A stretch of 64,000 nt of DNA from Escherichia coli (GTDB lineage Bacteria; Pseudomonadota; Gammaproteobacteria; Enterobacterales; Enterobacteriaceae): assembly GCF_044324785.1 (NCBI RefSeq), contig NZ_CP172127.1; one strand, written 5' to 3'. Each line of letters begins with the position of its first letter. Positions within the stretch are counted from its first letter, which is position 1. Shown in pieces: positions 503 through 47,406 of this stretch. Position numbers and translations under genes: made by a program. The notes under the pieces were generated by a model, which searched no databases, was not told the origin of the DNA, and saw nothing but the letters and a program-made list of their open reading frames with translations.

Positions 503-2740
503 GTGGACTGGCTTCTTGATGTTTTTGCTACCTGGCTCTACGGCTTAAAAGTAATCGCGATAACGTTAGCGGTCATCATGTTCATCAGCGGGCTGGACGA
601 TTTTTTTATTGATGTCGTCTACTGGGTACGCCGCATTAAACGCAAGTTGAGTGTTTATCGCCGCTACCCGCGAATGAGTTACCGCGAACTGTATAAACCA
701 GATGAAAAACCGTTAGCGATTATGGTTCCGGCGTGGAATGAAACGGGCGTCATCGGCAATATGGCCGAGCTGGCGGCGACCACGCTCGACTATGAAAACT
801 ATCATATCTTTGTTGGCACCTACCCCAACGACCCCGATACTCAGCGTGATGTTGACGAAGTGTGCGCTCGCTTCCCAAACGTGCATAAGGTAGTCTGCGC
901 GCGTCCTGGCCCCACCAGCAAAGCCGACTGCCTGAACAACGTGCTGGACGCCATCACCCAGTTTGAGCGTAGCGCCAATTTCGCTTTCGCTGGTTTTATT
1001 CTGCATGACGCCGAAGACGTAATTTCACCGATGGAATTGCGTTTGTTCAACTATCTGGTCGAGCGTAAAGATCTGATTCAGATCCCGGTATACCCATTCG
1101 AACGCGAATGGACGCACTTCACCAGCATGACTTACATTGATGAGTTTTCAGAACTGCATGGCAAAGATGTTCCGGTGCGTGAAGCCCTCGCCGGACAGGT
1201 GCCCAGCGCAGGCGTCGGCACCTGTTTCAGCCGCCGCGCCGTGACCGCACTGTTAGCTGACGGTGACGGTATTGCTTTCGACGTGCAGAGTCTTACTGAA
1301 GATTACGACATTGGTTTCCGCCTGAAAGAAAAAGGTATGACGGAAATTTTTGTCCGTTTTCCGGTGGTGGACGAAGCCAAAGAACGCGAGCAGCGTAAAT
1401 TTTTACAGCACGCGCGGACGTCAAACATGATCTGCGTGCGCGAATATTTCCCTGATACCTTTTCGACTGCGGTTCGACAAAAATCTCGCTGGATCATCGG
1501 CATTGTTTTCCAGGGCTTTAAAACCCATAAATGGACCTCCAGCCTGACGCTGAACTACTTTCTCTGGCGCGACCGCAAAGGGGCAATCAGTAACTTTGTC
1601 AGCTTCCTCGCGATGCTGGTGATGATCCAGCTTTTGCTGTTACTGGCGTATGAAAGTTTGTGGCCCGATGCCTGGCATTTCCTTTCTATTTTCAGCGGCA
1701 GCGCATGGTTAATGACCCTGCTGTGGCTAAACTTTGGTTTGATGGTTAACCGCATCGTGCAGCGGGTGATTTTTGTCACTGGCTACTACGGTCTGACGCA
1801 GGGGCTGCTATCTGTCCTGCGTCTTTTCTGGGGCAACCTGATTAACTTCATGGCCAACTGGCGCGCGTTAAAACAGGTACTTCAACACGGCGATCCACGT
1901 CGCGTCGCGTGGGATAAAACAACGCATGACTTCCCCAGCGTGACTGGCGATACCCGCTCGTTGCGCCCGTTAGGCCAAATTCTGCTGGAAAATCAGGTCA
2001 TCACTGAAGAACAACTCGATACAGCACTGCGTAATCGCGTCGAAGGTCTACGCCTGGGCGGTTCAATGCTGATGCAGGGGCTGATTAGCGCCGAACAGCT
2101 GGCACAGGCGCTGGCAGAGCAAAACGGCGTGGCGTGGGAGTCGATCGACGCCTGGCAGATCCCTTCATCACTGATTGCCGAAATGCCGGCCTCCGTGGCG
2201 CTGCATTATGCAGTGCTGCCGCTGCGTCTGGAAAATGATGAGTTAATTGTCGGCAGTGAAGATGGTATTGACCCGGTTTCGCTGGCGGCCCTGACGCGTA
2301 AAGTCGGACGCAAAGTGCGTTACGTCATTGTTCTGCGCGGACAAATTGTCACGGGGTTACGTCACTGGTATGCACGCCGACGCGGTCACGATCCGCGGGC
2401 AATGTTGTACAATGCGGTTCAGCATCAGTGGCTCACGGAACAGCAGGCCGGTGAAATCTGGCGGCAATATGTGCCGCATCAGTTCCTGTTCGCCGAAATA
2501 CTGACCACGCTCGGTCATATTAATCGTTCAGCAATTAACGTGTTGTTATTGCGCCATGAACGCAGTTCTCTGCCGCTCGGCAAGTTTTTGGTCACCGAAG
2601 GCGTTATCAGCCAGGAAACGTTGGATCGCGTCCTGACAATTCAACGCGAATTACAAGTTTCGATGCAATCACTATTACTCAAAGCAGGTTTAAACACAGA
2701 ACAGGTTGCGCAACTGGAGTCCGAAAATGAAGGAGAATAA
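503..2740 (+). CDS. nfrB: Bacteriophage N4 adsorption protein B (family-2 glycosyltransferase, inner membrane)
   Basis: 745-aa ORF with GTG start; sequence and length match recalled E. coli NfrB; followed by nfrA with overlapping stop/start. Confidence 0.9.
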   Translation: MDWLLDVFATWLYGLKVIAITLAVIMFISGLDDFFIDVVYWVRRIKRKLSVYRRYPRMSYRELYKPDEKPLAIMVPAWNETGVIGNMAELAATTLDYENYHIFVGTYPNDPDTQRDVDEVCARFPNVHKVVCARPGPTSKADCLNNVLDAITQFERSANFAFAGFILHDAEDVISPMELRLFNYLVERKDLIQIPVYPFEREWTHFTSMTYIDEFSELHGKDVPVREALAGQVPSAGVGTCFSRRAVTALLADGDGIAFDVQSLTEDYDIGFRLKEKGMTEIFVRFPVVDEAKEREQRKFLQHARTSNMICVREYFPDTFSTAVRQKSRWIIGIVFQGFKTHKWTSSLTLNYFLWRDRKGAISNFVSFLAMLVMIQLLLLLAYESLWPDAWHFLSIFSGSAWLMTLLWLNFGLMVNRIVQRVIFVTGYYGLTQGLLSVLRLFWGNLINFMANWRALKQVLQHGDPRRVAWDKTTHDFPSVTGDTRSLRPLGQILLENQVITEEQLDTALRNRVEGLRLGGSMLMQGLISAEQLAQALAEQNGVAWESIDAWQIPSSLIAEMPASVALHYAVLPLRLENDELIVGSEDGIDPVSLAALTRKVGRKVRYVIVLRGQIVTGLRHWYARRRGHDPRAMLYNAVQHQWLTEQQAGEIWRQYVPHQFLFAEILTTLGHINRSAINVLLLRHERSSLPLGKFLVTEGVISQETLDRVLTIQRELQVSMQSLLLKAGLNTEQVAQLESENEGE

Positions 2741-5699: not shown

Positions 5700-6590
5700 A
5701 TGCGTAAGTTCATTTTCGTATTGCTGACACTGCTTTTGGTCAGCCCTTTTTCCTTTGCGATGAAAGGTATTATCTGGCAACCACAAAACCGTGATAGTCA
5801 GGTTACCGATACCCAGTGGCAGGGGCTGATGAGTCAGTTACGTTTGCAAGGCTTCGATACCCTGGTTTTGCAATGGACCCGTTACGGCGATGCATTCACC
5901 CAGCCAGAACAGCGCGCGTTATTGTTTAAGCGTGCCGCAGCTGCGCAACAGGCTGGCCTGAAGCTGATTGTCGGGCTGAACGCCGATCCGGAATTTTTTA
6001 TACACCAGAAACAGTCATCCGCGGCGCTGGAAAGCTATCTTAATCGCCTGCTGGCTGCCGATCTCCAGCAAGCCAGATTATGGAGCGCCGCGCCTGGCGT
6101 AACGCCGGATGGCTGGTACATCAGCGCGGAAATTGACGACCTGAACTGGCGTAGCGAAGCCGCCCGTCAGCCTTTGCTAACATGGTTAAACAACGCGCAG
6201 CGGCTGATTAGCGATGTTTCAGCAAAACCGGTTTATATCAGTAGTTTTTTCGCCGGAAACATGTCGCCCGATGGCTATCGCCAACTGCTGGAACACGTTA
6301 AAGCAACCGGCGTTAATGTCTGGGTACAGGATGGCAGCGGCGTGGATAAACTTACTGCTGAACAGCGTGAACGTTATCTACAGGCCAGCGCCGATTGCCA
6401 AAGCTCCGCCCCAGCAAGCGGCATTGTTTATGAACTGTTTGTCGCCGGCAAAGGCAAAACCTTTACAGCGAAACCGAAACCGGATGCAGAGATCGCCTCG
6501 CTGTTAGCGAAACGTTCCTCTTGCGGTAAAGACACGCTCTATTTCTCTCTGCGCTATTTGCCCGTCGCACACGGCATTCTCGAGTATTAA
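5700..6590 (+). CDS. ybcH: Uncharacterized exported protein YbcH
   Basis: 296-aa ORF with N-terminal signal peptide, directly after nfrA stop (TAA-ATG); synteny nfrB-nfrA-ybcH-envY. Confidence 0.8.
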   Translation: MRKFIFVLLTLLLVSPFSFAMKGIIWQPQNRDSQVTDTQWQGLMSQLRLQGFDTLVLQWTRYGDAFTQPEQRALLFKRAAAAQQAGLKLIVGLNADPEFFIHQKQSSAALESYLNRLLAADLQQARLWSAAPGVTPDGWYISAEIDDLNWRSEAARQPLLTWLNNAQRLISDVSAKPVYISSFFAGNMSPDGYRQLLEHVKATGVNVWVQDGSGVDKLTAEQRERYLQASADCQSSAPASGIVYELFVAGKGKTFTAKPKPDAEIASLLAKRSSCGKDTLYFSLRYLPVAHGILEY

Positions 6591-6772
6591 ATCCCTTCCA
6601 GGTAAGTCGGGTACGACCTGACTTACCACTTTCGCTCTCGTCAGAATTCCATCAAGATTAATTGCTAAAAAGCATGCTAAAGAAAGAAGATCGTTATCGG
6701 CGAACGGGCCGATCACTCATGCAGGAAGCATAGATCCTTTGAGCGGAGTTTCTGATATCTGAGGAGTGCGAA

Positions 6773-7534
6773 ATGCAATTGAGCAGCAGTGAACCTTGCG
6801 TGGTGATCCTGACCGAAAAAGAGGTAGAGGTAAGCGTTAATAACCATGCCACGTTTACCCTTCCGAAAAATTACCTGGCCGCCTTCGCGTGCAACAATAA
6901 CGTCATTGAACTCTCAACGTTAAATCACGTATTAATCACCCACATCAACCGCAACATCATCAACGATTATCTGTTGTTTTTAAATAAGAACTTAACCTGT
7001 GTAAAGCCCTGGTCGCGGCTGGCTACCCCGGTTATCGCTTGTCATAGCCGTACACCGGAAGTGTTCCGGCTAGCCGCCAACCACAGCAAGCAGCAACCCA
7101 GCAAACCCTGCGAAGCGGAGTTGACGCGCGCATTGCTTTTTACCGTATTGTCTAACTTTCTTGAGCAATCGCGGTTTATTGCCCTACTGATGTATATCTT
7201 ACGCAGCAGCGTCCGCGACAGCGTCTGCCGCATTATTCAAAGCGATATTCAGCATTACTGGAATCTGCGAATTGTCGCCAGTTCGCTATGTTTAAGCCCC
7301 AGCCTGCTCAAAAAGAAATTAAAAAACGAAAATACCAGCTATAGCCAGATTGTCACAGAGTGTCGTATGCGTTACGCCGTACAGATGTTATTGATGGATA
7401 ACAAAAATATCACTCAGGTAGCGCAATTATGTGGCTATAGCAGCACGTCGTACTTTATCTCTGTTTTTAAGGCGTTTTACGGCCTGACACCGTTGAATTA
7501 TCTCGCCAAACAGCGACAAAAAGTGATGTGGTGA
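6773..7534 (+). CDS. envY: AraC-family transcriptional regulator EnvY (porin thermoregulation)
   Basis: 253-aa ORF with C-terminal AraC-type HTH (…ITQVAQLCGYSSTSYFISVFKAFYGLTP…); synteny next to ompT. Confidence 0.85.
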   Translation: MQLSSSEPCVVILTEKEVEVSVNNHATFTLPKNYLAAFACNNNVIELSTLNHVLITHINRNIINDYLLFLNKNLTCVKPWSRLATPVIACHSRTPEVFRLAANHSKQQPSKPCEAELTRALLFTVLSNFLEQSRFIALLMYILRSSVRDSVCRIIQSDIQHYWNLRIVASSLCLSPSLLKKKLKNENTSYSQIVTECRMRYAVQMLLMDNKNITQVAQLCGYSSTSYFISVFKAFYGLTPLNYLAKQRQKVMW

Positions 7535-7577
7535 AGGGCAAAGCGGAAACGGATAAGACGGGCATAAATGAAGAAGA

Positions 7578-7624
7578 AATGGCGCGCCCTGCAGGATTCG
7601 AACCTGCGGCCCACGACTTAGAAG
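7578..7624. repeat. 47-bp direct repeat identical to the 3' part of tRNA-Arg (57505-57551); distal attachment-site copy of the integrated element
   Basis: Exact 47-nt match read by eye (aatggcgcgccctgcaggattcgaacctgcggcccacgacttagaag) at both positions; identity breaks on both sides. Confidence 0.8.
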
Positions 7625-8046
7625 TTCCTAGAACGACATTTTAAGTCAACAACTTACCGCGCCATCTCTGCGCTCACACGTCCCACTACCTCAAAACATG
7701 TAAAGCCTTGCAAGCCATTGTGAGGCCTTATGTGTCTCAGTTTTGTCCCTCTTTTTTGTACCAAAAAACATAGCAATTGAGGATAAACCTCATGCTATTT
7801 TCGCTTATATGCCTCTAAAGGCATGGCGCTTAAATAGATAAAAACACCACAAAAGCATAAAAAACCACACAGTAAAACCGCAACATAAAACAATAACAGA
7901 TAATTAAACCAAAAACAGATAGCGCATTGTGATAATCATTCAATACTAAACAAAATATAAACAGTGGAGCAATATGTAATTGACTCATTAAGTTAGATAT
8001 AAAAAATACATATTCAATCATTAAAACGATTGAATGGAGAACTTTT

Positions 8047-9000
8047 ATGCGGGCGAAACTTCTGGGAATAGTCCTGACAACCCCTATTGCGATCAGCTCT
8101 TTTGCTTCTACCGAGACTATATCGTTTACTCCTGACAACATAAATGCGGACATTAGTCTTGGAACTCTGAGCGGAAAAACAAAAGAGCGCGTTTATCTAG
8201 CTGAAGAAGGAGGCCGAAAAGTCAGTCAACTCGACTGGAAATTCAATAACGCTGCAATTATTAAAGGTGCAATTAATTGGGATTTGATGCCCCAGATATC
8301 TATTGGGGCTGCGGGCTGGACTACTCTCGGCAGCCGGGGTGGCAATATGGTCGATCAGGACTGGATGGATTCCAGTAACCCCGGAACCTGGACAGATGAA
8401 AGTAGGCACCCTGATACACAACTCAATTATGCTAACGAATTTGATCTGAATATCAAAGGCTGGCTCCTCAACGAACCCAATTACCGCCTGGGACTCATGG
8501 CCGGATATCAGGAAAGCCGTTATAGCTTTACAGCCAGAGGTGGTTCCTATATCTACAGTTCTGAGGAGGGATTCAGAGATGATATCGGCTCCTTCCCGAA
8601 TGGAGAAAGAGCAATCGGCTACAAACAACGTTTTAAAATGCCCTACATTGGCTTGACTGGAAGTTATCGTTATGAAGATTTTGAACTCGGTGGCACATTT
8701 AAATACAGCGGCTGGGTGGAATCATCTGATAACGATGAACACTATGACCCGGGAAAAAGAATCACTTATCGCAGTAAGGTCAAAGACCAAAATTACTATT
8801 CTGTTGCAGTCAATGCAGGTTATTACGTAACACCTAACGCAAAAGTTTATGTTGAAGGCGCATGGAATCGGGTTACGAATAAAAAAGGTAATACTTCACT
8901 TTATGATCACAATGATAACACTTCAGACTACAGCAAAAATGGTGCAGGCATAGAAAACTATAACTTCATCACTACTGCTGGTCTTAAGTACACCTTTTAA
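8047..9000 (+). CDS. ompT: Outer membrane protease OmpT (omptin family)
   Basis: 317-aa ORF with signal peptide; sequence matches recalled OmpT (MRAKLLGIVLTTPIAISSFA…). Confidence 0.9.
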   Translation: MRAKLLGIVLTTPIAISSFASTETISFTPDNINADISLGTLSGKTKERVYLAEEGGRKVSQLDWKFNNAAIIKGAINWDLMPQISIGAAGWTTLGSRGGNMVDQDWMDSSNPGTWTDESRHPDTQLNYANEFDLNIKGWLLNEPNYRLGLMAGYQESRYSFTARGGSYIYSSEEGFRDDIGSFPNGERAIGYKQRFKMPYIGLTGSYRYEDFELGGTFKYSGWVESSDNDEHYDPGKRITYRSKVKDQNYYSVAVNAGYYVTPNAKVYVEGAWNRVTNKKGNTSLYDHNDNTSDYSKNGAGIENYNFITTAGLKYTF

Positions 9001-9230
9001 CAACGTTAAATAGATTTTCTCCCCGGTGGTATTGTATCGCCCCGGGGAATTTGTTTACCGTTAAGAGCAACAATATCCCCTAAACTTGTAAGCATTTAAC
9101 CTGCCTCCTAACGTGTAAGCTCTTACCACAACACTAGACTCAATATATTCAAATTCGCTATGCCGTGACATCATTTAACACCTTGTAATTCATCGCCATA
9201 ATTGATTTAATTCACAAATAAAACTATAAC

Positions 9231-9899
9231 ATGGTGAAATTGATGAAAAAAAACACAGATGATGGGGCTAAAATTTACACACCACTTACCCTAAAGCTTT
9301 ATGACTGGTGGGTTTTGGGAGTATCAAATCGGCTTGCATGGGGATGTCCTACAAAGGAACACCTTCTTCCACACTTTCTGGAACATTTAGGTAACAACCA
9401 TCTGGATATTGGTGTTGGAACTGGGTTTTACCTTACTCACGTACCTGAGAGTAGTCTGATATCTTTAATGGATTTGAACGAAGCTAGCCTGAACGCGGCA
9501 TCTACAAGGGCTGGGGAATCAAAAATTAAACATAAAATTAGCCATGATGTTTTTGAACCTTATCCCGCGGCGTTACATGGCCAATTTGATTCCATTTCCA
9601 TGTTTTACCTTCTTCACTGCCTGCCTGGAAATATATCTACAAAAAGCTGTGTAATACGCAATGCGGCGCAGGCCTTAACTGACGATGGAACTCTATACGG
9701 AGCCACAATTCTTGGCGATGGAGTTGTGCACAATAGCTTCGGTCAAAAACTGATGCGCATTTACAATCAGAAAGGCATCTTTTCAAACACAAAAGATTCC
9801 GAAGAAGGCTTAACACATATACTCTCAGAGCATTTCGAGAATGTTAAAACCAAGGTTCAAGGTACTGTAGTAATGTTTTCCGCTTCAGGGAAAAAATAG
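9231..9899 (+). CDS. Class I SAM-dependent methyltransferase (YbcY-like)
   Basis: 222-aa ORF with methyltransferase motif I (LDIGVGTGFYL); AT-rich codon usage compared with flanking phage genes. Confidence 0.65.
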   Translation: MVKLMKKNTDDGAKIYTPLTLKLYDWWVLGVSNRLAWGCPTKEHLLPHFLEHLGNNHLDIGVGTGFYLTHVPESSLISLMDLNEASLNAASTRAGESKIKHKISHDVFEPYPAALHGQFDSISMFYLLHCLPGNISTKSCVIRNAAQALTDDGTLYGATILGDGVVHNSFGQKLMRIYNQKGIFSNTKDSEEGLTHILSEHFENVKTKVQGTVVMFSASGKK

Positions 9900-10403
9900 C
9901 ATCCAACCGCAGCACGTTCTTGCATACGCCGTGTCTGCGGTTTAATTTTCACTCTCAAATATTGTAGTTAAGTACAATCATGATTCTTTGGACTATATAA
10001 ATTTTCTTGTAATTAGTTCTTTAGCCGAAATTTTAAAACAATTATTTATTCAAGGGATGGACTCTATTAGGAACTATCTCAAAAACATGAATAACCACCA
10101 TCTTACGATTGAATTATTTTACAGAGTATTCTTATTGAGAAAAACAACAGCAGGTACACCAAATAATATAGAAATGTAAATTTAGGTTCATTAATCTTTT
10201 GAGTTACAACCTAAACTTTCCGTTAATCACTAAGATATCAATAGATTATACTCACTGAGCGCACGTTTTTTACAATTATTATTTCTCACATCAAAATGCG
10301 CATACCAATCTGTTATTTGACACTTTCTTATTTGTTACTAGAGTTAATTGGGTGCTGACAAGGCACATGTTATTTACAATTTGAAAATCAGAGGAGAAAT
10401 GAT

Positions 10404-10586
10404 ATGACCGAACATCGTGGCGGTGCAGGTAATTTCGCTGAAGATCGACAAAAAGCTTCTGACGCTGGTCGTAAAGGCGGCCAACATAGTGGCGGTAATT
10501 TTAAAAACGATCCACAAAGAGCATCAGAAGCAGGGAAAAAAGGTGGTCAGAATAGCCATGGTGGCGGCCGTAAATCTGACTCTTAA
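10404..10586 (+). CDS. KGG-repeat stress-induced protein (YciG/YmdF family)
   Basis: 60-aa Gly-rich ORF (MTEHRGGAGNFAEDRQKASDAGRKGGQHSGG…) closely resembling YciG; strong GAGGAG RBS upstream. Confidence 0.8.
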   Translation: MTEHRGGAGNFAEDRQKASDAGRKGGQHSGGNFKNDPQRASEAGKKGGQNSHGGGRKSDS

Positions 10587-10658
10587 TTTATTACCCCCTA
10601 CATTCGTGAATAACTGAAGCTAACTGCGAGCCTACGGGCTCGCAGTGAAAACTCTGGA

Positions 10659-11165
10659 GTGATTATGCAAATTAAATCTGTTGAAGATATCTTCATCCAC
10701 TTATTATCGGATACATACAGCGCTGAGAAACAACTAACAAAGGCACTGTCTAAACTTAGTCGCTCTGCATATAGTGATAAATTAACCGCTGCTTTTCAGT
10801 CACATCTTGATGAGACACATGGTCAAATTGAACGCATCGATCAGGTTGTTGATTCTGAAGATGGTCTTAAATTGAAAAGAATTAAGTGTGCCGCAATGGA
10901 AGGACTTATCGAAGAGGCGAATGAGGTAATTGAAAGCACTGATAAAAATGAAGTACGTGATGCAGCATTGATTGCTGCAGCACAAAAAGTAGAGCACTAT
11001 GAAATTGCCAGTTATGGCACTTTGGTAACACTCGCTGAGCAATTAGGATATAAAAAAGCGGCTAAACTCCTGAAAGAAACACTGGAAGAGGAAAAAGCTA
11101 CTGATGTCAAATTAACAGATCTGGCATTTAATAACGTTAATAAAAAAGCTCAGGATAACTCCTGA
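10659..11165 (+). CDS. Ferritin-like DUF892 protein, YciF-like
   Basis: 168-aa ORF highly similar to recalled E. coli YciF (…IEDVFIHLLSDTYSAEKQLT…HYEIASYGTL…). Confidence 0.8.
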   Translation: MIMQIKSVEDIFIHLLSDTYSAEKQLTKALSKLSRSAYSDKLTAAFQSHLDETHGQIERIDQVVDSEDGLKLKRIKCAAMEGLIEEANEVIESTDKNEVRDAALIAAAQKVEHYEIASYGTLVTLAEQLGYKKAAKLLKETLEEEKATDVKLTDLAFNNVNKKAQDNS

Positions 11166-11201
11166 ACTATAGACTTCAATTTCTTTTAGGATAAACAGAT
11201 T

Positions 11202-29211: not shown

Positions 29212-30237
29212 TTACGCCAGTTGTACGGACACGAACTCATCAGGGTCAGCCAGCAGCATCAGCGGTGCTGACTGAATCATGGTGAACTCACGCGCCGGAT
29301 CGCCGGTGGTCACCCAGTTTTTCGGGTAACGGGCAGAGGCGTTAATGCCTTCGCGCTGTGCGTCCGCATCCTGAATGCAGCCATAGGTGCGCAGACCGCG
29401 TGCCTGAGTGTTCCCCAGCACCATCGTGTTGTCCGGCAGGAAGTTCTTTTTGACGCCGTTTTCCACGTACTGTCCGGAATACACGACGATGGCCACATCG
29501 CCATACATCCCCTTATAGGACACCGCTTTGCCCAGGTCTTTCACCGCTGTCTCCAGCTCGGAATTAGAGCCACGACGGGTATCCAGCTTCTCCTTGACGG
29601 CTTTGAAGGAACGGAACAGCGCCCAGCCTTTCGGATCGAACACGATGATATTCACCACACCGCTGGCGTTCAGCGCGTAGGCTTCGATATCGTCGGTCGG
29701 GTCATACGTGGACTTGTCACGCTTGCTCCACTCCGTGCCGCCGGACTGCGTGATGTTATTCTCCTCACTGCGGCCCATATCCACCTCAACCGGATCGAAG
29801 GCTTCACCGGTCATGGTGTATTTGCCCTTAAGCACGGCAGAAACTGCCTGCATCTCTTCGACCTGAGCAATGGCCAGCTCTTCGTCACGCATGTTCTGCA
29901 TGATGATGCGACGGCGGCGGTAAGCCGGGTCCGCCAGATTCTGCGGATCTTCATCCGGCAGGCGACGCAGGGTCATCTGCGGATTCACTTCATGCTTCGG
30001 CTTGACATATCCCGGCGTAAATTCAGAGGTGGAGCCGCCACGGGAACGGATAACCTCACCGGAAACAATCGGCGAAACGTACAGCGCCATGTTTACCAGT
30101 CCCGGAATTTGTGAGAGATAGACTTTCTCCGTGGTGAAGGGATAGCTCTCACGGAAAAAGAGACGCAGAAACAGCGGATCAAACTTAAATTTCTGCTCAT
30201 TTGCCGCCAGCAGTTGGGCGGTTGTGTACATCGACAT
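29212..30237 (-). CDS. E: Major capsid protein E
   Basis: ORF 29212..30264; start placed at MSMYTTAQLLAANEQ… (341 aa) as in lambda gpE. Confidence 0.9.
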   Translation of the reverse strand: MSMYTTAQLLAANEQKFKFDPLFLRLFFRESYPFTTEKVYLSQIPGLVNMALYVSPIVSGEVIRSRGGSTSEFTPGYVKPKHEVNPQMTLRRLPDEDPQNLADPAYRRRRIIMQNMRDEELAIAQVEEMQAVSAVLKGKYTMTGEAFDPVEVDMGRSEENNITQSGGTEWSKRDKSTYDPTDDIEAYALNASGVVNIIVFDPKGWALFRSFKAVKEKLDTRRGSNSELETAVKDLGKAVSYKGMYGDVAIVVYSGQYVENGVKKNFLPDNTMVLGNTQARGLRTYGCIQDADAQREGINASARYPKNWVTTGDPAREFTMIQSAPLMLLADPDEFVSVQLA

Positions 30238-36372: not shown

Positions 36373-36569
36373 TAACCTGTCGGATCGCCGGAAAGGACCC
36401 GCAAAATGATAATAATTATCATCTACATGTCACAACGTGCATCTACGCCATCAAACCACGTCAAATAATCAATTATGACGCAGGTATCGTATTAATTGAT
36501 CTGCATCAACTTAACGTAAAAACAACTTCAGACAATACAAATCAGCGACACTGAATACGGGGCAACCTC

Positions 36570-36764
36570 ATGTCAACTAAGAACAGAACCCGCAGAACAA
36601 CAACCCGCAACATCCGCTTTCCTAACCAAATGATTGAACAAATTAACATCGCTCTTGAGAAAAAAGGGTCTGGGAATTTCTCAGCCTGGGTCATTGAAGC
36701 CTGCCGTCGGAGACTAACGTCAGAAAAGAGAGCATATACATCAATCCAAAGTGATGATGAATAA
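36570..36764 (+). CDS. Small DUF3950-like protein (YlcI-like)
   Basis: 64-aa ORF between cos and bor; resemblance to recalled DLP12 YlcI is tentative. Confidence 0.45.
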   Translation: MSTKNRTRRTTTRNIRFPNQMIEQINIALEKKGSGNFSAWVIEACRRRLTSEKRAYTSIQSDDE

Positions 36765-38807: not shown

Positions 38808-39537
38808 TTACATCATGTCTTTTTCTAAAAAAAATCTTGATAAATATTGATGGGGAGGAACACCAAAATATCTTCTGAAAACACTTACAAAATATGACGT
38901 GTTTTCATAACCGCATATCTCAGCAACTTTTCCAACAGAATATAAATTGTAGCTTAATAACCTTTCCGCCATCACCATTCGCTCTTCAAGAATTAATTTA
39001 CTAAATGATAAGCCTTCGTGCTTTAATTTTCTTTTTAACAGACTTTCACTCAGATACAGTCTTGAAGATATATCACAAAGTCTCCATGCTGCAGATATAT
39101 CCGTGTGAATAATAGCCTTAACTTTACTTCCTAAACTATTAAGACATCCAAATAAAAACTTTGCACTATTTTCTCTGAAGATAAGATAGCAAGACATGCA
39201 AGTGATATTTGATTTCTAACAAAATCCACAGTTCTGCCATCACAATTCAAGCATGCAATCAAGTTCTTTAACAATGAAAAATCTTCACATTCCACCATCA
39301 AGTATGCCGGATAAAACCTTCTTACAGAAAAAGGTGAGAGTGTGTTGCTTTTAAAGAAATCATTAACTGTTTTCTCTTCAACATCTACGATCATTACATG
39401 ATCTATATTTGATGAAAAAAATCTTTTAAATTGTAATCAATGAGAACAGCACTTCCTTTTTTAAACAAAATATCTTCTTTACCAATTCGGACATCAAACG
39501 AGTTCAACACCAAAATGATAGAACATATGTATGGCAT
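38808..39537 (-). pseudogene. AraC/XylS-family regulator disrupted by frameshifts (three consecutive ORF pieces)
   Basis: Fragments 39537-39400 (MPYICSIILVLNSFDVRIGKEDILF…, read manually), 39394-39131 and 39197-38808 (C-terminal AraC HTH …CGYENTSYFVSVFRRYFGVPP…) lie in different frames in collinear order; AT-rich. Confidence 0.55.
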
Positions 39538-39888
39538 ATTATCCACCTGATATCATTGGGGTTACACCAGGTAAGTATAGGTGGAAAATCAATATTCGCC
39601 AGTTCAACAATAAGGAAAATCTCATTGCATCACAAGTATAAAATTATGTATTTAACTCACAAAGACAAATTATTAAACCAATCTGTTATATTATATATAG
39701 CTGCGTGGAATCATAATATTATATATTTTGACTGGCATGTTTACCAACTTTAAGTTGCATCTCAATGGTTTCTTCAGCGTAAACAGAGTTTTTATACAAA
39801 CTGACACTCTGGGTATCATAGTGTAGTTTTTACGATTGTAAATATCCTGCATGCAGGAACTCATCCTTTTGGATGATATCGCATACAA

Positions 39889-40848
39889 TTAATTTACCAT
39901 CAGTCTTAGAGCCAGTTCGTCCGGATAGGGATCGAAGTAATTCTGTGTAAGCAAGTAGTCATTAGGATACTCACCCAGATAATGCTTCAGCAGAGTCAAC
40001 GGCGCAAGAAGAGGTAATGTGCCAGAACGATAGTTAAGTATAACCTCGCTCAACTCTTTACGCTGGCGTGTACTTAAGTAGTTACTAAAATACCCCTGTA
40101 TATGCATCAGCACATTCGTGTGATTTTTACGTGATGCAGGTTTTCTGAGAATCGCCATCAGCTTATCACGATACACCTCAAAGTATGATTCAAGGTCCGC
40201 CCACTCGTGTATTGCAGCCACAAATGGTCCCATATCTTTATAGCCTGCCTGACTATGCGCCAACAACTGAAGCTTATAACGACTATGAAAAGCTAATAAC
40301 TCTCTTCTTGATAATTTCTCCTTGTAAAGGTGATTGAGCTCATGCAAAGCAAAAACTCTTTCAACAAAATTCTCACGAAGCACTGGATCATGTAATCGCC
40401 CATCCTCTTCAACCGGTAGCCAGGAAAACTTTTCCATCAAAGTGCTCGTAAATAGTCCCACTCCATCTTTACGACCTCGATTACCATTTTCATCATAGAC
40501 ACGCACGCGCTCCATGCCACAGCTGGGAGATTTAGCACAAACCACAAACCCCGATACATCCTTTAATTTGTCCATATAAGAACGACTAAACTCTGTCATT
40601 CTCTCTGTCACATCCTCATTCTGGTCGTGGCTGAAACACATCCGTATATTTCCTTGCGTCGAGCGCACAAGACGTAGAGCAGGACGCGGAACTGGCAGCC
40701 CTATAGCCATTTCCGGACATACTGGTCTGAATGTTACCCATTCCACTAATTTGTCCATTAAAAAGTCAGCTCTTTTGTGACCACCATCAAAACGAACAGC
40801 AGAACCGGCCAAACAACCGCTGATTCCAATCACAGGTTTTTTTATCAT
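39889..40848 (-). CDS. DUF523/DUF1722-type protein (possible 2-thiouracil desulfurase-like family), phage cargo
   Basis: 319-aa ORF; N-terminal PVIGISGCLAG… region and C-terminal YbgA-like region; family assignment from memory only. Confidence 0.45.
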   Translation of the reverse strand: MIKKPVIGISGCLAGSAVRFDGGHKRADFLMDKLVEWVTFRPVCPEMAIGLPVPRPALRLVRSTQGNIRMCFSHDQNEDVTERMTEFSRSYMDKLKDVSGFVVCAKSPSCGMERVRVYDENGNRGRKDGVGLFTSTLMEKFSWLPVEEDGRLHDPVLRENFVERVFALHELNHLYKEKLSRRELLAFHSRYKLQLLAHSQAGYKDMGPFVAAIHEWADLESYFEVYRDKLMAILRKPASRKNHTNVLMHIQGYFSNYLSTRQRKELSEVILNYRSGTLPLLAPLTLLKHYLGEYPNDYLLTQNYFDPYPDELALRLMVN

Positions 40849-41040
40849 ATTCTCCCCCTTGACTAATTCATTAACACATAAACTGTGTAGTGCACGGAAT
40901 AAATTGCCTTTCTGGCGTCATCACTGACAATTTTTCTGTTATGGACTATTCCTAATATAGTATGAAAGTTCTTTAAGTGATCGGTCGTAATCATCTATCT
41001 TTCATACTTACTCTCAACTATCAAAAGTACAGGATTTATT

Positions 41041-41565
41041 ATGAAGTTATGGCCTGTGTTGACTGGCATTGCACTCTCTTTCACTCTTATAGCATGTAAG
41101 GCCCCGACACCACCTAAAGGTGTGCAGCCGATTACAAATTTTGACGCCAACCGCTACCTCGGAAAATGGTATGAAATAGCTCGCCTCGAGAACCGGTTCG
41201 AACGTGGTCTGGAACAGGTCAGCGCTACTTATGGAAAACGGAACGACGGAGGGATTCGTGTACTTAACCGTGGATACGATCCAACGAAAAATAAATGGAG
41301 CGAGAGCGAAGGTAAAGCATACTTTACTGGAGATACTAAAACTGCAGCGTTGAAGGTTTCGTTTTTTGGCCCCTTCTATGGTGGCTATAATGTAATCAAA
41401 CTGGATGATGAGTATAAGTATGCTCTTGTCAGTGGCCCGAACAGAGAATACCTATGGATTCTGGCAAGGACCCCAACTATTCCAGATAAAGTAAAAGCAG
41501 ACTATGTGCGAACCGCTCAAAAGTTGGGATTCAATGTCAATGAATTATTATGGGTTAAACAATAA
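41041..41565 (+). CDS. Outer-membrane lipocalin (Blc-like lipoprotein)
   Basis: 174-aa ORF with lipobox (LIAC) and lipocalin motifs (…NRYLGKWYEIARL…SFFGPFYGGYNVI…); paralog-level similarity to E. coli Blc. Confidence 0.8.
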   Translation: MKLWPVLTGIALSFTLIACKAPTPPKGVQPITNFDANRYLGKWYEIARLENRFERGLEQVSATYGKRNDGGIRVLNRGYDPTKNKWSESEGKAYFTGDTKTAALKVSFFGPFYGGYNVIKLDDEYKYALVSGPNREYLWILARTPTIPDKVKADYVRTAQKLGFNVNELLWVKQ

Positions 41566-41593
41566 AATCCCTACCCGAAATAATACTTATTAG

Positions 41594-41620
41594 AAAAAAA
41601 CCAGCCTTTGGGGAGGCTGG
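41594..41620 (-). terminator. Candidate late terminator tR' (intrinsic, minus strand)
   Basis: Hairpin ccagcc-(8 nt)-ggctgg followed on the minus strand by a 7-T run, about 65 nt downstream of the putative pR'. Confidence 0.45.
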
Positions 41621-41720: not shown

Positions 41721-42113
41721 TTATTTCGAACAATCAGCATCCATCTCCAATCGGAGATCCAACACCATCAGCATACCCTCCACTACGCCCTCAGCTTTCT
41801 GGAGCATCCTGCCAACCCAACAATCAGATCGCCCATGCTTACGTGCAAGCGCCATAAAAGTCATGCCGCCGACATAATAGTCCACCAATAAATCATGCAA
41901 ATCGCTGTTGTTCTTTTTCAGACGGGCCATGCACCCGCAAATGATCATCGCGTCATCGTCACAACATTGCGGGCGAGATTTTACTTTTGAAGGAATTAAT
42001 CCCTTAAAACCGGCGGCAATGGACGACCAGGTCACATCTTCATGATTATTAGCCGCCCACGCTCCCCAACGCTCAAGAACCATCTGAATATCACGCATCA
42101 ACTTACTCCACAA
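41721..42113 (-). CDS. Q: Late-gene antiterminator Q (QuuD / phage 82-type)
   Basis: 130-aa ORF (start may be internal MRDIQM… at 42098) with Cys cluster ([16 protein letters not shown]) in the canonical position upstream of pR' and lysis genes. Confidence 0.7.
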
Positions 42114-42183: not shown

Positions 42184-42306
42184 TCATACTCCTGCTCCTG
42201 TCAGGGTTTTGGCGTAATTCTTCAGTATTCGGTAATCGGTCAAAACAGAACCGGGGAAACGATATAAGCGCAGACGCCCCCAGCGGTGGCGAAGAAGTTC
42301 TGCCAT
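42184..42306 (-). CDS. Small protein YlcG-like
   Basis: Manually translated 40-aa ORF (MAELLRHRWGRLRLYRFPGSVL…) between rusA and Q; not in the supplied ORF track. Confidence 0.35.
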   Translation of the reverse strand: MAELLRHRWGRLRLYRFPGSVLTDYRILKNYAKTLTGAGV

Positions 42307-42320
42307 ATTAAACTCAAACA

Positions 42321-42683
42321 TCATTCATTCCCCATTTCGGTGATGGTCAGTTCCAGCCTCCCACCTTTGGTAACAGGCATCTTCACAACGCGGTAATCAA
42401 CGACCTGAGCATCATCCAGCCAGAAACCTGCTTTAGTGAGTGCGTCAAAAGCGGCTTTTTGCAGATTATCCAGGTCACGGCGACGGCGATCCGGCATGTG
42501 GCACTCAATGCGGATTTTCACAGGCATAGCCAGGCCGATATCCAGCATTGCGTTTTTAATGATTCGGGCGACGTTATCGCGGTATGCCTGCCCCTCTGCA
42601 CTGACGTGCGTGCGCCCGCGATTATGGCGGTAATAGCGATTATTGCTCGGAGGCCAGGGTAATGTGATACTGTAGGTATTCAC
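42321..42683 (-). CDS. rusA: Holliday junction resolvase RusA
   Basis: 120-aa ORF matching RusA ([18 protein letters not shown]…). Confidence 0.9.
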
Positions 42684-42970
42684 GCCTTAATAACCCCCTC
42701 TTTCAGCCAGATAACCTGTGTTCTCGCCATACCTTCCAGCGCGCATTCTTTTGCATATGCAGCATCGACAAAATGTGTGCGGCGGTCGATTTCGTCGTGG
42801 CAGGCAGAACATGCAATGGTGGCAATCAGGTCTGGCGGTTTGATACCGGTACCGCACAATCCAGCCAGCCGGATATGTGCCAGTACAGACGTTTCAGAAT
42901 TGCCATTACATACGCCAGGGATTCTTACCTGGCATTCCCGACCACGCGCTGCTTTTCTCAAATCAGCCAT
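42680..42970 (-). CDS. ybcO: DUF1364 protein YbcO (putative nuclease)
   Basis: ORF 42680..43009; start placed at [24 protein letters not shown]… (Cys-rich); nin-region synteny. Confidence 0.7.
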
Positions 42971-43133
42971 GATTCCTCCTTGCTGCCAGTCGCAACCATT
43001 TTTTATCAACCAGGCTAGCGGTATATCCGAGCAGTGTTGGTATTTCGGATGGCTTCAGCTCAGGCTTACGCTTACGACGATTTGATACTCTGTAGATGTG
43101 TCCGTTCATGACACGAATAAGCGGTGTAGCCAT
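42963..43133 (-). CDS. ninE: NinE protein
   Basis: Manually translated 56-aa ORF ([56 protein letters not shown]); start overlaps ybcN stop (TAATG), stop overlaps ybcO start. Confidence 0.7.
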   Translation of the reverse strand: MATPLIRVMNGHIYRVSNRRKRKPELKPSEIPTLLGYTASLVDKKWLRLAARRNHG

Positions 43134-43588
43134 TACGCCTCCTGCTTGTCGCGGAGCAGCTGGAACTCGCAGCTCTGCGGAATAGTCAGGTGGCAGCCAA
43201 TATTCACCGCCCAGGCTTCAACCTTACACAGGAAGACATACATCTCTCCGGTATCAAGATCGGAGGTATGGCGTAACGACTGGATAGTGGTGATATCACC
43301 GGTTACGACATCAACCAGGTCTTTGGTTTCATAACCGAGATATGTGTGTTTGAGAGCATCTTTTACCCAAGCTGGAGTGGCGAACGTTTTACCCCTGCTG
43401 ATGAGGTATTCACTGATTTCGCTGTACCACATGTGGCTGAGTGCATTCTGGGAAAGACTGCGTTTCTCACGCCACGGTTTAAGCACCATGCGAAAGCATT
43501 TGCCCTCCTCCAGATAAGGCTGGATCTGCCGACCGATAGCGGTGAAGTTGCCGCGATGTAATTTGATGCCGTCTTGTGAGAGGTTCAC
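43133..43588 (-). CDS. ybcN: NinB/YbcN-family protein (recombination / DNA base-flipping)
   Basis: 151-aa ORF in the nin region upstream of ninE. Confidence 0.75.
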
Positions 43589-43802
43589 GCTTCACCTCCG
43601 CAGAGGTCAAACGCTAGATGCAAAGAATTGCAGGTGCATTTCTGCATCTGTGAAGGGAGAAGAGAGTTTGGATTGTATGTGCGCATAAACGTCCCCGTTT
43701 AGCGCAGAAGTCACCGGAGTTGTTCAGGCTCCGGTGACATAATTATGCCGTGTTGATTTCCCAAAATCAAAATCGATAGAATTGCTCCTTCTTAAAACAC
43801 TT

Positions 43803-44600
43803 TTACTCTCTGGAAGCTTTTCTTATCTCTCTTGGTGTTATATTAAAACGATTATGAAATCTTTCAGTAAAACGAGAAGGACACTTATAACCATTTTCTC
43901 TGGCAATCTCGCTTATAGGTTTTACCGTCGTTTGTATAGCAGACAACGCATTATTTAACCTCACATCGTCCAGTATACTTTGGAAACTTACCCCCTCGCT
44001 TGCTAGACGGCGATGTAATGTAGAAACAGAAATGTAGAGATATCGAGCAACCTTGTTTGCTGTCCATTTTGTGCCGGGTTCGGATAGCAGCAGGTTATAA
44101 CAACGACTTATCAATGATTGTTTACTATATGATAAAAGTAAATGATTAACATGATTCACTCCTAACGAAAGTAGAACGCCCATTGCTAAGTGCTCCTGAA
44201 TTTTAGTTGAGAAGCCTCGGGAAACAGATGTTTTTAGTTGCTCCCAACAATATATTAACTCAGGATTCTGAGGTAAAAAGAAACTTGTTTTGTTACGTAT
44301 TTGATCAGTTACCGTATAAAGTTTTTGGAAACTCTCAATTAAATCAATGGGTAAGTAAAGCATTTCTGCAAGATAAAGCCCTGCTTCAGGATAATTCTCA
44401 ATATAAAATTCATAACCACAAGGAAATAATATTATTTGATTATTATCAACAGTTAAAGTATGCGTCTCCCAATTGATAACTTTCTTTCCCTGACGGATAC
44501 GACACAAAGCTGGCATAAGAGGCTTAACCCTATGAATCTCATGATGTTTATGCATCCGTATTTCTTCGATCTTTAAGTTAGTCTTACCTCTTGCCAGCAT
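43803..44600 (-). CDS. ybcM: AraC-family transcriptional regulator YbcM
   Basis: 265-aa ORF with C-terminal AraC HTH; matches recalled DLP12 YbcM. Confidence 0.8.
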
Positions 44601-44609
44601 ACTCTCACC

Positions 44610-45161
44610 CTACTTTATCTCATAAACTGGTGTTATCTCAGCGGTTGCGATTTTATTAGCATTAAGCATATAACCAACTAACGCTCCGCTGGAGTTAGAA
44701 TCTACAGGAATCTTTTCAGTTTTTAGAGCCCATACTTTAAACTGGTAATGATGTGGTTTATCTCCTTTAGGAGGACATGCGCCACCAAACCCAGCATAGC
44801 CAAAATCATTTCGGCCTTGAACAGCACCAGTCGGCAGTTTTGTTCCATCACGTCTCCCTGCATCAACGGGCAAATATGTTACTGTTGCTGGAATATTAAC
44901 AACAGTCCAATGCCACCAACCACTGCCTGTAGGTGCATCTGGATCATATACAGTTACGGCAAAGCTTTTGGTACCTTCAGGAACACCAGACCAGGTTAAT
45001 GAGGGCGATGTATTACCACCTTCACACCCAAATCCAGAAAAGACATGAGACGTTGTAAGTTGCTCTCCTGTTTTTATTTCATTACTAGTGACCTGAAATG
45101 CCGCAGCCTGCGCAGAAAATGTTATGAATGCCAATACAGTTGAAACGATAAGTGTTTTCAT
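44610..45161 (-). CDS. ybcL: Periplasmic PEBP/Raf-kinase-inhibitor-like protein YbcL
   Basis: 183-aa ORF with signal peptide; matches recalled YbcL. Confidence 0.8.
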   Translation of the reverse strand: MKTLIVSTVLAFITFSAQAAAFQVTSNEIKTGEQLTTSHVFSGFGCEGGNTSPSLTWSGVPEGTKSFAVTVYDPDAPTGSGWWHWTVVNIPATVTYLPVDAGRRDGTKLPTGAVQGRNDFGYAGFGGACPPKGDKPHHYQFKVWALKTEKIPVDSNSSGALVGYMLNANKIATAEITPVYEIK

Positions 45162-45625
45162 AAAAACCTCTTTGTTATGACCTATCGTTATTTTATTTGA
45201 TATTCCTTTATCTCATTATGCATAAAGGCGCAATGTTCATGCAAAAGCAATCACAATTGTACCCCCAACCCAATTATTTGCCACAATATACACAAAGCAC
45301 ATTGATACTATCTAAAAACTCTGCTTTATTATTAGTAATACCTACGAAAGTCGGTGTTATTTTTTAACCTACCATTCAAAATACGTGACATACACCATTT
45401 TGCTCATAATAATTTGTCACGTATTTTCAGTATTTGAATCTGCGACCAAGAGTTCTCACCTAACAAATGATTAAGATTGTATAGCTCATTTACTACCCCA
45501 ATACAGCCGTACAAAACTCGCTTGTGGGAGCAAACAAAGTAATTACCCATTAAGTTTCGTCAAAGATAATTAATTCTATCTTGCACTTTATCACCATAGC
45601 ATAACTTAAAATCCGAGATCATTAT

Positions 45626-47152
45626 TTAGAAATAAATCTCACCATCAACCATATATTTGAGAGCACTTATCGCCTGCTGGGCGGATATTACTTTCATTAA
45701 AGGATAGTGTTTAAAAACAATGCCATTCATAAAATAGATATCACAGGTTTTATTATCCGTATTAATTATGATTTTTTCGAATGTTTTATAGGCAAGTGTA
45801 CGGCATAACTCTCGTCCATTTTTACTGGTTAAGTCAATAGCATAAAAATCACTGAATGAATTTACACCTTTACTCTTCAAAGTTTTCAATGATACCGAAG
45901 CCCTTCGTAATTCCTTATCTAATAGTCTTATTTTCTCTGCTATAGCGGTAACTTCAGGCGCGACAGACAATGCAACGATTAAATTATTAATTTTCATCTG
46001 AAGCTCAATAATTTTTAACTCTAAAGTTTCATTAGCATCTTTCTTGTTTTCAACTGGTTGAATTTTGCTACAATTAAAAAGCAATTCATTAATGATATTA
46101 TAATCAACCAAATCTCTTTTTATTGATGGCCTGTCACATCGATGTAATCTTCTCATCGGACAAACATAATAGCCATGCAAACTTCCAGATACCGCATGAA
46201 CAATCATGGTATTACCACAAGCCTCACACTTCATAACTGTTCGAAGTAGATTTATTAGCATAGGATTCTTGCTACTATTGCTAATACCAAAAGGTGCCAA
46301 CCGAATTTCCTGTACAGCGTAAAACAAATCATCTGATATGACTCTGGGATAATAGCCAGCGATTTCACTTATCCCTTTCCCTCTTGCACGATATGAAGGT
46401 ACGCATATACCTATCAGAGCTTTATTCGCTAATAATTTTTCAATTACAGAAGGTCCCCATGCACTTTCTTTTCCTGAGAAATTCTTTACAGCATGATCAT
46501 TTAAATACTTGGCTATTGCATTCAATGAGCGCCTTTCCATCCTGAGTTTAAAAATTAGCTCAATAGTTTTCACCCTGTCGGGGTCTGGAACAAAAGCCGT
46601 TCTTTTGTCATCTAAGGAGAGCCATCTCGGACAAGACGCCGTCATAATCGTACCTGATTCCAGTGCATCCTGCCGTTTTTTCTTCCATGATAATTTAACC
46701 CGACTTGACTTTATCTCGCTTTCTTCATTTGCCCTTTGTGCTATAAGTATGGCTTTTATTAATGAATATGGCTCATTCAAAGAGTCAATATTATAGACTG
46801 TATTGTCGCAAAGAGTTATAACATCAATACCGTGATTCAAAATCAATTTCAGACGTTCAATCGCTTCACCGACTTTTTCTCTTGAAAGTCTGTCCAGACT
46901 TTCAACTAACAATGTAGTTCCTGGCAATATATAACCATGCTCTATAGCATCTAAAAATTCCGAAAAAGCTCCTGATTGTGCATGCTTTCCTTTGAATGCA
47001 CTTAATCCTAAATCTTCATATGTTATGGTATCAAGATAATAATCACTATTTACCTTTAACCATTCAGCAATAAGTCTTCTCTGTCGGTTTAATGAGTCAC
47101 CAGACATCTGACCTGGTGATGAAAATCGCATATATGCTATGGCTTTTTTCAT
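45626..47152 (-). CDS. ybcK: Large serine recombinase (YbcK-like)
   Basis: 508-aa ORF; N-terminal resolvase domain with catalytic Ser context (AIAYMRFSSPGQ), C-terminal Cys-rich zinc ribbon (CEACGN…CPMRRLHRCD). Confidence 0.8.
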   Translation of the reverse strand: MKKAIAYMRFSSPGQMSGDSLNRQRRLIAEWLKVNSDYYLDTITYEDLGLSAFKGKHAQSGAFSEFLDAIEHGYILPGTTLLVESLDRLSREKVGEAIERLKLILNHGIDVITLCDNTVYNIDSLNEPYSLIKAILIAQRANEESEIKSSRVKLSWKKKRQDALESGTIMTASCPRWLSLDDKRTAFVPDPDRVKTIELIFKLRMERRSLNAIAKYLNDHAVKNFSGKESAWGPSVIEKLLANKALIGICVPSYRARGKGISEIAGYYPRVISDDLFYAVQEIRLAPFGISNSSKNPMLINLLRTVMKCEACGNTMIVHAVSGSLHGYYVCPMRRLHRCDRPSIKRDLVDYNIINELLFNCSKIQPVENKKDANETLELKIIELQMKINNLIVALSVAPEVTAIAEKIRLLDKELRRASVSLKTLKSKGVNSFSDFYAIDLTSKNGRELCRTLAYKTFEKIIINTDNKTCDIYFMNGIVFKHYPLMKVISAQQAISALKYMVDGEIYF

Positions 47153-47406
47153 GGTGACACCTGCTAACGTATGCTTTTATAAACCTTAGTGGTGGGATAT
47201 AATTTTTGTTTAATTTTTATTTAAAAAGACAATTAAGGTCACATTATCTTGAATATACAACAATAATCGTATTGCAATTTTCTTACGCCATAATCTTGAA
47301 AGCACAAAAGAATACATAAAAAATAAAGATATTAACAAAAAGCATAAAACGAGGCTCATATAAATATAAGAGCCTCCATATTTTAGTCGTTTAGAAACAA
47401 ATTATT

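Follow-up and report, generated by a model that had tools for sequence, protein, structure and literature searches.

A 56-codon open reading frame on the minus strand of our window (the whole 64,000-nucleotide (nt) stretch of DNA analysed here), at positions 42963-43133, is the gene ninE. It is a nin-region gene of a lambdoid prophage that resembles DLP12 and resides in the Escherichia coli chromosome. Six genes of this region, all encoded on the minus strand from ylcH to ylcG, interlock as a chain to which ninE belongs; we consider this account, in which the translation of neighbouring genes would be linked as well, highly probable. Successive genes of the chain are spaced by -4, -1, -8, -4 and -4 nt, such that every stop codon overlaps the next start codon (Table 1).

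The initial annotation of this locus had placed the ninE start in a TAATG overlap with the ybcN stop codon and the ninE stop in an overlap with the ybcO ATG. Both overlaps are present, the first at 43135-43131 and the second at 42970-42963 of the minus strand, where the 8 nt of ATGGCTGA hold the ybcO ATG 5 nt upstream of the ninE TGA, as read directly from the sequence; the interval that had been assigned, 42963-43135, corresponds exactly to ninE plus the ybcN stop codon. The same annotation had described ninE as shorter than 60 amino acids (aa) and absent from the supplied track of open reading frames, and the gene is indeed missing from that track because its 56 aa fall under the 60-aa default of the program that listed the frames. 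The strand had been left unstated, and the chain of overlaps extends beyond the three genes that had been named. A 60-aa cut-off thus hides a real, conserved 56-aa prophage gene, which matters little beyond correct annotation.

Table 1 Features of the interlinked chain around ninE, listed in the direction of translation; positions are those of the window
Feature	Position	Strand	Description
ylcH	43585..43686	-	33 aa; first gene of the overlapped chain; from the open reading frame list and translation
ylcH/ybcN junction	43588-43585	-	GTGA; ylcH TGA overlaps ybcN GTG by 4 nt (spacing -4)
ybcN	43133..43588	-	151 aa; GTG start, TAA stop at 43135-43133; annotated 'DNA base-flipping protein'
ninE Shine-Dalgarno AGGAGG	43138..43143	-	In the last ybcN codons, 4 nt upstream of the ATG
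ybcN/ninE junction	43131..43135	-	TAATG; TAA (43135-43133) and ATG (43133-43131) share one base (spacing -1)
ninE	42963..43133	-	56 aa; ATG at 43133-43131, TGA at 42965-42963; basic protein
ybcO Shine-Dalgarno AAGGAGG	42975..42981	-	From NinE codons Ala51-Arg52-Arg53 (GCA AGG AGG)
ninE/ybcO junction	42963..42970	-	ATGGCTGA; ybcO ATG at 42970-42968, ninE TGA at 42965-42963; 8-nt overlap (spacing -8)
ybcO	42680..42970	-	96 aa; DUF1364; His-Me finger (HNH-like) putative nuclease
ybcO/rusA junction	42683-42680	-	GTGA; rusA GTG overlaps ybcO TGA by 4 nt
rusA	42321..42683	-	120 aa; GTG start; Holliday-junction resolvase
rusA/ylcG junction	42324-42321	-	ATGA; ylcG ATG overlaps rusA TGA by 4 nt
ylcG	42184..42324	-	46 aa; end of the chain; also in the K-12 and GF131 annotations
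antiterminator Q gene	41721..42098	-	85 nt from ylcG; distal end of the nin region; Pfam PF06530, 173 bits

Genomic setting of the chain

The window is part of the E. coli chromosome, with nfrA/nfrB-ompT on one side and fimZ and adjacent fimbrial genes on the other, and the lambdoid prophage that it carries is of the DLP12 type, is far more complete and adjoins tRNA-Arg. The best-matching strain, GF131 (99.9% identity), is collinear with the window. The nin region of lambdoid phages is bounded by the replication genes on one side and by the antiterminator Q gene on the other. In the GF131 annotation the gene order reads O-P-ren ... ybcN-ninE-ybcO-rusA-ylcG-Q, which places ninE between the replication genes and Q and hence within the nin region.

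The arrangement of overlaps around ninE is already known, is typical of lambda-like phages and is ordinary. RefSeq annotates the layout ylcH-ybcN-ninE-ybcO-rusA-ylcG, with overlaps of 4, 1, 8, 4 and 4 nt, in both the DLP12 prophage of K-12 MG1655 and GF131, and at least 80% of the chain segment is held by 2,897 of the 5,426 complete E. coli genomes. Across the homologous, annotated 33 kb of GF131, 17 of the 42 co-directional neighbour pairs overlap, 14 of these by -1, -4 or -8; a single overlap at ninE is therefore unremarkable, because overlaps are common across the prophage. The nin region of the window prophage keeps the classic interlinked layout.

ninE is a diverged member of a recognized family

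Profile searches place the 56-aa product in the NinE family over its full length, residues 1-56 of 56 being covered both by the NCBIfam model NF007245 'NinE family protein' (141.4 bits, cut-off 88) and by PHROG 288 (E = 6.6e-35). The Pfam NinE model PF05322 gives 23.8 bits, just below its gathering score of 25 (E = 4.1e-5), and aligns to residues 18-53 only; a precomputed PF05322 match is present in 98 of the 100 NinE homologues found. This model was built around lambda-type sequences. The sub-threshold score is a marginal miss by a diverged subfamily and does not contradict the NinE identity. Alignment to known NinE proteins, which had been suggested as a check, returned clear similarity: the K-12 DLP12 protein differs at 2 of 56 residues, and lambda NinE is identical at 17 of 35 residues (49%, BLASTP E = 9e-7). 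A YTA-L-D-W-R-AR motif is common to the window, lambda and P22 proteins, and tblastn matches to the window NinE fall on the annotated ninE of P22, HK97 and many Stx phages. The homologues number 100 across Enterobacterales and mostly share the 56-aa length; a 34-sequence alignment with lambda and P22 NinE among its members has 6 invariant columns and 14 more that are at least 90% conserved. To judge from these alignments, the window NinE belongs to a diverged NinE subfamily and is not an unrelated open reading frame. NinE is also among the most widespread small lambdoid genes.

The pattern of substitution points the same way. Values of dN/dS lie between 0.12 and 0.37, and changes at codon positions 1, 2 and 3 number about 16, 12 and 34, a predominance of third-position changes that indicates a protein-coding gene under purifying selection. 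Could the frame nevertheless be a chance open reading frame, or non-coding sequence that links ybcN to ybcO? The frame is short, its Pfam score misses the gathering cut-off narrowly, and it is overlapped by longer antisense frames of 102 aa (42777-43085) and 81 aa (42773-43018). Against this stand the NCBIfam and PHROG matches, the homology to lambda NinE, the retention of the frame and its length in homologues and the low dN/dS, and the antisense frames match no phage protein family. A ninE frame broken by frameshifts or interruptions in the majority of homologues was looked for, and the opposite was seen. A chance origin of the frame, refuted by the selection and homology tests, is barely credible. 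The opposite-strand frames of 102 and 81 aa, and a further one of 78 aa, were rejected as genes for want of a phage protein family match.

Structure prediction adds little to the picture of the protein. An AlphaFold2 model based on the 34-sequence alignment has a mean pLDDT of 68 and a pTM of 0.28; at this low confidence it places a short N-terminal helix at residues 4-9 and one basic C-terminal helix at residues 34-55, with the basic N-terminal part mostly unstructured. The model is too weak and too simple to inform a fold search, and a search of PDB sequences with the NinE profile yielded a chance-level match only (E = 0.12). It is a matter of speculation from the sequence and this model that NinE may serve as an accessory factor that binds nucleic acid or protein. 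Our literature search found no functional study of NinE, the full-text results being swamped by the English word 'nine'. In lambda, the nin genes lie within the pR transcriptional unit, are non-essential and are dispensable for plaque formation (PMC10695390).

Neighbouring genes and the start of ybcO

The names ybcN and ybcO, which the initial annotation had given to the genes on either side of ninE, were likewise borne out. NCBIfam NF007281 matches ybcN with 277 bits over residues 1-151 of 151, and PHROG 72 (NinB/Orf) matches it with E = 6e-52; the Pfam NinB model PF05772 scores 22.3 bits, under its cut-off of 23.8. A pairwise BLASTP comparison of YbcN with lambda Orf was not significant (E = 0.3), and a search of the PDB with YbcN gave no match. 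Membership of YbcN in the Orf family has been established biochemically (PMC4118853), and on these profile matches and the literature YbcN is a recombination mediator of the NinB/Orf family. Further downstream, rusA is identified by Pfam PF05866 (82 bits) and NCBIfam NF007305 (279 bits), and ylcG by PHROG 2705 (E = 2.4e-21). At the head of the chain, ylcH corresponds to b4588 in the K-12 annotation and to a hypothetical protein in GF131; it has no match in PHROG.

For ybcO, Pfam PF07102 scores 138.7 bits and PHROG 131 (HNH endonuclease) also matches; the family has been classed as His-Me finger (PMC5714182). The start codon of this gene sets the length of its overlap with ninE, and the program that listed open reading frames extends the ybcO frame upstream to a TTG at 43009, which would give a 109-aa protein and a 47-nt overlap instead of 8 nt. 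This TTG is without a Shine-Dalgarno sequence, at -3.3 kcal/mol versus -11.4 kcal/mol for the ATG, and RefSeq uses the ATG. The Pfam model begins at residue 3 of the 96-aa form, and the chain in PDB entry 3g27 corresponds to that form, aligning over its full length (1-96 to 1-96, E = 2.3e-60). In homologues in which ninG or another nuclease follows ninE, the downstream gene still begins at an ATG in the same place. The upstream start was rejected on the missing Shine-Dalgarno sequence and the 3g27 alignment, and we regard it as highly improbable; the ATG within the 8-nt overlap is the start used here.

Both junctions are kept in diverged phages

We aligned six loci, namely the window and those of Escherichia phage HK639, Enterobacter phage CobraSix and the Klebsiella phages 2b LV-2017, Chronis and RCIP0098. 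By tblastn, the five phage NinE proteins are 56 aa long and 58-68% identical to that of the window, and at the nucleotide level the saturation of synonymous sites between the window and the five phage loci is heavy or complete (pS 0.69-0.78). The two junctions are nonetheless retained. The upstream one is a -1 or -4 overlap in all six loci, reading TGATG in CobraSix and the three Klebsiella phages and ATGA in HK639, and a GGAGG or GGGAGG core precedes ninE in every one of them. The downstream one is ATG-NN-stop, with a spacing of -8, in six of six loci, whether the stop is TGA, TAG or TAA. It persists through changes of the gene that follows: the window and RCIP0098 have ybcO there; CobraSix, 2b LV-2017 and Chronis have ninG; and HK639 has a different HNH gene. 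The NinE genes of lambda and P22 are also overlapped at both ends. Because both junctions are kept despite saturated synonymous sites, and because homology at the family level is strong, the junction architecture is maintained, and the ninE feature is more than chance.

Recombination could also leave such a record. The junction sequences might chiefly be short homology 'linkers' for the exchange of lambdoid modules, their conservation reflecting recombination history, and this reading is compatible with coupling. It fits the observation that the changeover from one downstream gene to another, be it ybcO, ninG or a different HNH gene, falls exactly on the junction ATG, and that in the 34-sequence alignment the NinE of RCIP0098 and P0094 is chimeric, its N-terminal half being of the DLP12 type and its C-terminal half of the lambda type. 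However, the shared stretch at the junction (GGAGG, a short spacer and CATG) amounts to only about 10-15 nt, a short length for exchange by homology, and the function of a ribosome-binding site together with the C-terminal residues of NinE accounts for it fully. We therefore consider linkers an unlikely account of the conserved junctions.

Embedded ribosome-binding sites and probable translational coupling

The four main starts of the chain have strong Shine-Dalgarno sequences, each located inside the preceding gene. Duplexes with the 3' end of 16S rRNA reach -13.8 kcal/mol for ybcN, -10.3 for ninE, -11.4 for ybcO and -12.3 for rusA, at or beyond the 5th percentile (-10.0 kcal/mol) of a local background with a mean of -3.3 kcal/mol; that of ylcH, the first gene, is weak (-5.7 kcal/mol). 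The site for ybcO is formed by ninE codons that are unusual within that gene. Across homologues, Arg52-Arg53 of NinE is encoded by AGG or CGG followed by AGG (AGG AGA in CobraSix), and the other NinE arginine codons are nearly all CGN. This fixation of NGG-AGG is a clear sign of dual coding and of a constraint from ribosome binding.

The spacing and the embedded ribosome-binding motif expected of a coupled pair are found together at ybcN/ninE (-1) and at ninE/ybcO (-8). Spacings of -4, -1 and -8 are enriched among coupled genes (PMC12548453), and 13 of the 14 overlapping gene pairs tested experimentally were strictly coupled, with one uncoupled (PMC6728339). Because the spacings here belong to these enriched classes and nearly all tested overlapping pairs were coupled, translational coupling of ybcN, ninE and ybcO is a reasonable inference. 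Reporter data indicate that overlaps of more than 4 nt couple less efficiently, with -8 below -4 (PMC12548453).

The overlaps may instead be incidental, each gene being initiated de novo at its own Shine-Dalgarno sequence and the overlaps arising from genome compaction and the abutment of phage genes. De novo initiation is also possible because each main start has a strong Shine-Dalgarno sequence of its own, with duplex energies of -10 to -14 kcal/mol, and because there is no significant occluding fold: of the 80-nt RNA folds around the five starts, none exceeds shuffled sequence significantly in stability (z from +0.9 to -1.9). The Shine-Dalgarno sites are thus not clearly sequestered, and the form of coupling that depends on 'unfolding' has no support. 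The frequency of overlaps across the prophage and the one uncoupled pair among the 14 tested are in keeping with incidental overlap as well. Against it, the spacings fall only in the coupling-enriched classes -1, -4 and -8, they persist even where synonymous divergence is saturating and where another downstream gene has taken over, and the other 13 tested pairs were coupled. On balance, incidental overlap is possible but doubtful, and linked translation is the reading that we prefer.

On this reading, induction of the prophage would lead to transcription of the chain within the delayed-early rightward transcript. Ribosomes that end ybcN would re-initiate at the adjacent ninE ATG, and those that end ninE would step back 5 nt to the ybcO ATG, the embedded AGGAGG motifs helping both re-initiation steps. 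A single message would in this way yield linked amounts of NinE, the Orf-like mediator, the HNH-like nuclease and the RusA resolvase. The embedded ribosome-binding sites and the overlaps also bear on attempts to engineer or express rusA, ybcO or ybcN from this locus, since edits to a gene end will affect the neighbour.

Transcription of the chain

A crude scan for consensus promoters and terminators returned nothing at either ninE junction, with overall counts near the expectation from shuffled sequence. The K-12 DLP12 operon has low native expression without insertion of an upstream promoter (PMC4118853). For the host regulator HusR, activation of rusA-ylcG has been reported (PMC12844172, 2026); it acts at a site inside ybcO, upstream of rusA, where the published HusR-dependent promoter region lies. 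The window carries the two published HusR boxes without change, one at 42916-42931 in ybcO and the other at 42565-42580 in rusA. Given the HusR site inside ybcO, the chain is not necessarily a single transcription unit in the lysogen.

A candidate partner role for NinE

NinE might be a stoichiometric partner of an adjacent recombination protein, either the Orf-like YbcN or the downstream nuclease. In this proposal the fixed, rare AGG-AGG pair at the C-terminus of NinE would have two roles, binding the ribosome for the nuclease gene and pausing it so as to set the ratio of hand-over from ninE. Its backing goes no further than the adjacency of the genes, their conservation and a tendency, known from published work, for coupled pairs to encode subunits of a complex. 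The neighbours of ninE vary, being ninD and ninF in lambda and ninX in P22, which speaks against a fixed partner. We rate a partner role as quite improbable; if true, it would link NinE, long uncharacterised, to phage recombination.

Comparison with known systems

The closest relative of the chain is the DLP12 prophage of K-12, where ninE is b0548 and the six genes, their order, their lengths and the five overlaps (-4, -1, -8, -4 and -4) are the same. The window chain is 98.5% identical to it over 1,503 nt, with 22 differences and no insertions or deletions. At the protein level, NinE differs at two of its 56 residues (P17S and S54N), YbcO at four and YbcN at one; RusA is identical, as is the ylcG DNA. 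The two prophages differ around the chain. That of the window is the more complete, with O, P and ren upstream and lysis, head and tail genes downstream, and after Q it carries a lipocalin gene and a DUF523/DUF1722 gene, whereas K-12 has an IS5-disrupted nmpC.

The same principle of organization is seen in the ninR region of lambda, described as a 'chain of interlinked genes' (Kroger & Hobom 1982, as cited in PMC10695390). There too, small genes between the replication genes and Q are chained by stop/start overlaps, which occur at P/ren and at every pair from ninB to Q (4, 4, 4, 34, 4, 11, 4, 23 and 4 nt), and the region encodes homologues of NinE and of Orf/NinB as well as a junction-resolving nuclease. 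The gene content differs: lambda NinE is 60 aa long, and its match is confined to the C-terminal 35 residues; lambda ninE lies between ninD (34-nt overlap) and ninF (4-nt overlap) rather than ybcN and ybcO; and ninG/rap stands in place of ybcO and rusA. Synteny of ninD, ninE and ninF has been reported as conserved (PMC4118853), and in P22 the neighbour of ninE is ninX.

HK639, CobraSix, 2b LV-2017, Chronis and RCIP0098 share with the window an Orf-like gene followed by NinE, an embedded GGAGG and overlaps on both sides. They depart from it in their stop codons, which are TAG or TAA, in the ninG gene downstream in three of them, and in the ATGA of HK639 at the first junction. Beyond phages, the ninE junctions resemble coupled pairs of the trpB-trpA type (Huber et al. 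2019; reviewed by Brown & Wade 2025) in being co-directional, in their -1, -4 or -8 spacing and in a Shine-Dalgarno sequence within the upstream open reading frame. Taken with K-12 and lambda, the arrangement in the window is the DLP12 and phage-82 type of the interlinked chain of lambda ninR.

Overlapping signals in ninE and probable recombination in two homologues

Arg52-Arg53 of NinE is encoded by AGG AGG, a rare codon pair that is also the Shine-Dalgarno sequence for whatever gene comes after ninE. NinE homologues carry CGG AGG or AGG AGG at this position (AGG AGA in Enterobacter phage CobraSix), and the other NinE Arg codons are CGN in nearly every case. Two homologues, that of Klebsiella phage RCIP0098 (L007 1501-1671) and the protein P0094, are chimeric, joining an N-terminal half of the DLP12/Klebsiella type to a lambda-type C-terminal half (FHYTAHLADVRWLRR). 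The two-type halves of these proteins indicate, as judged from their sequences, recombination within a gene of 170 nt.

Putative regulatory elements of the overlapped chain

Both boxes published for HusR (YnfL) under the K-12 ybcO>rusA gSELEX peak (PMC12844172) are found in the window with 0 mismatches; the one within ybcO, CAGGTAAGAATCCCTG, comes ~30 nt after the stop codon of ninE. These intact boxes suggest that rusA-ylcG may have an internal promoter under host control within the overlapped chain (PMC12844172).

A GC-rich hairpin with a perfect 10-bp stem (GUCACCGGAG...CUCCGGUGAC) lies on the transcribed strand directly upstream of ylcH, and a weak promoter-like match immediately precedes it. 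The 71-nt window containing the hairpin folds at -22.2 kcal/mol (z = -3.9 versus shuffles), and there is no U-tract at the hairpin. It may mark where the ybcL-ybcM insert ends, or be a tR2-like element.

Window coordinates and strands of the features discussed
Feature	Position	Strand	Location
AGG AGG pair	42975-42980	-	ninE
HusR box CAGGTAAGAATCCCTG	42916-42931	-	inside ybcO
HusR box CGGGCGACGTTATCGC	42565-42580	+	inside rusA
Hairpin	43710-43738	-	between ybcM and ylcH
Promoter-like match	43770-43742		upstream of hairpin
Site of GF131 insert	29993-30008		major capsid gene
Unaligned to GF131	50360-51001		
Unaligned to GF131	36401-36758		near iss/bor-nohD interval
emrE, ylcJ, ybcK, ybcL, ybcM	~43800-47900	-	between ren and ylcH
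Lipocalin gene	41041-41565	+	between Q and lysis genes
DUF523/DUF1722 and helix-turn-helix genes	within 39000-41600		between Q and lysis genes

Differences from GF131 and K-12

In E. coli GF131, the closest among the genomes listed, the prophage major capsid gene is interrupted by an insert of ~11 kb (L011, the GF131 sequence, 398-11308) that the window lacks. This insert looks like a phage satellite from its gene content, which comprises genes for an integrase, AlpA, a primase-like protein and SSB as well as for major capsid and decoration proteins of its own. Two short window stretches gave no megablast alignment to GF131, and the prophage around them is 97–99% identical to it. The larger may be an immunity-region variant, since it is located where the helix-turn-helix regulator genes of GF131 meet.

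The early-right region also holds non-phage cargo genes in two intervals, ~43800-47900 (-) and 39000-41600. The first includes genes for a recombinase (ybcK, frameshifted in GF131), a PEBP family protein (ybcL) and an AraC family protein (ybcM). Where the window has the lipocalin, DUF523/DUF1722 and helix-turn-helix genes, K-12 instead carries an IS5-disrupted nmpC.
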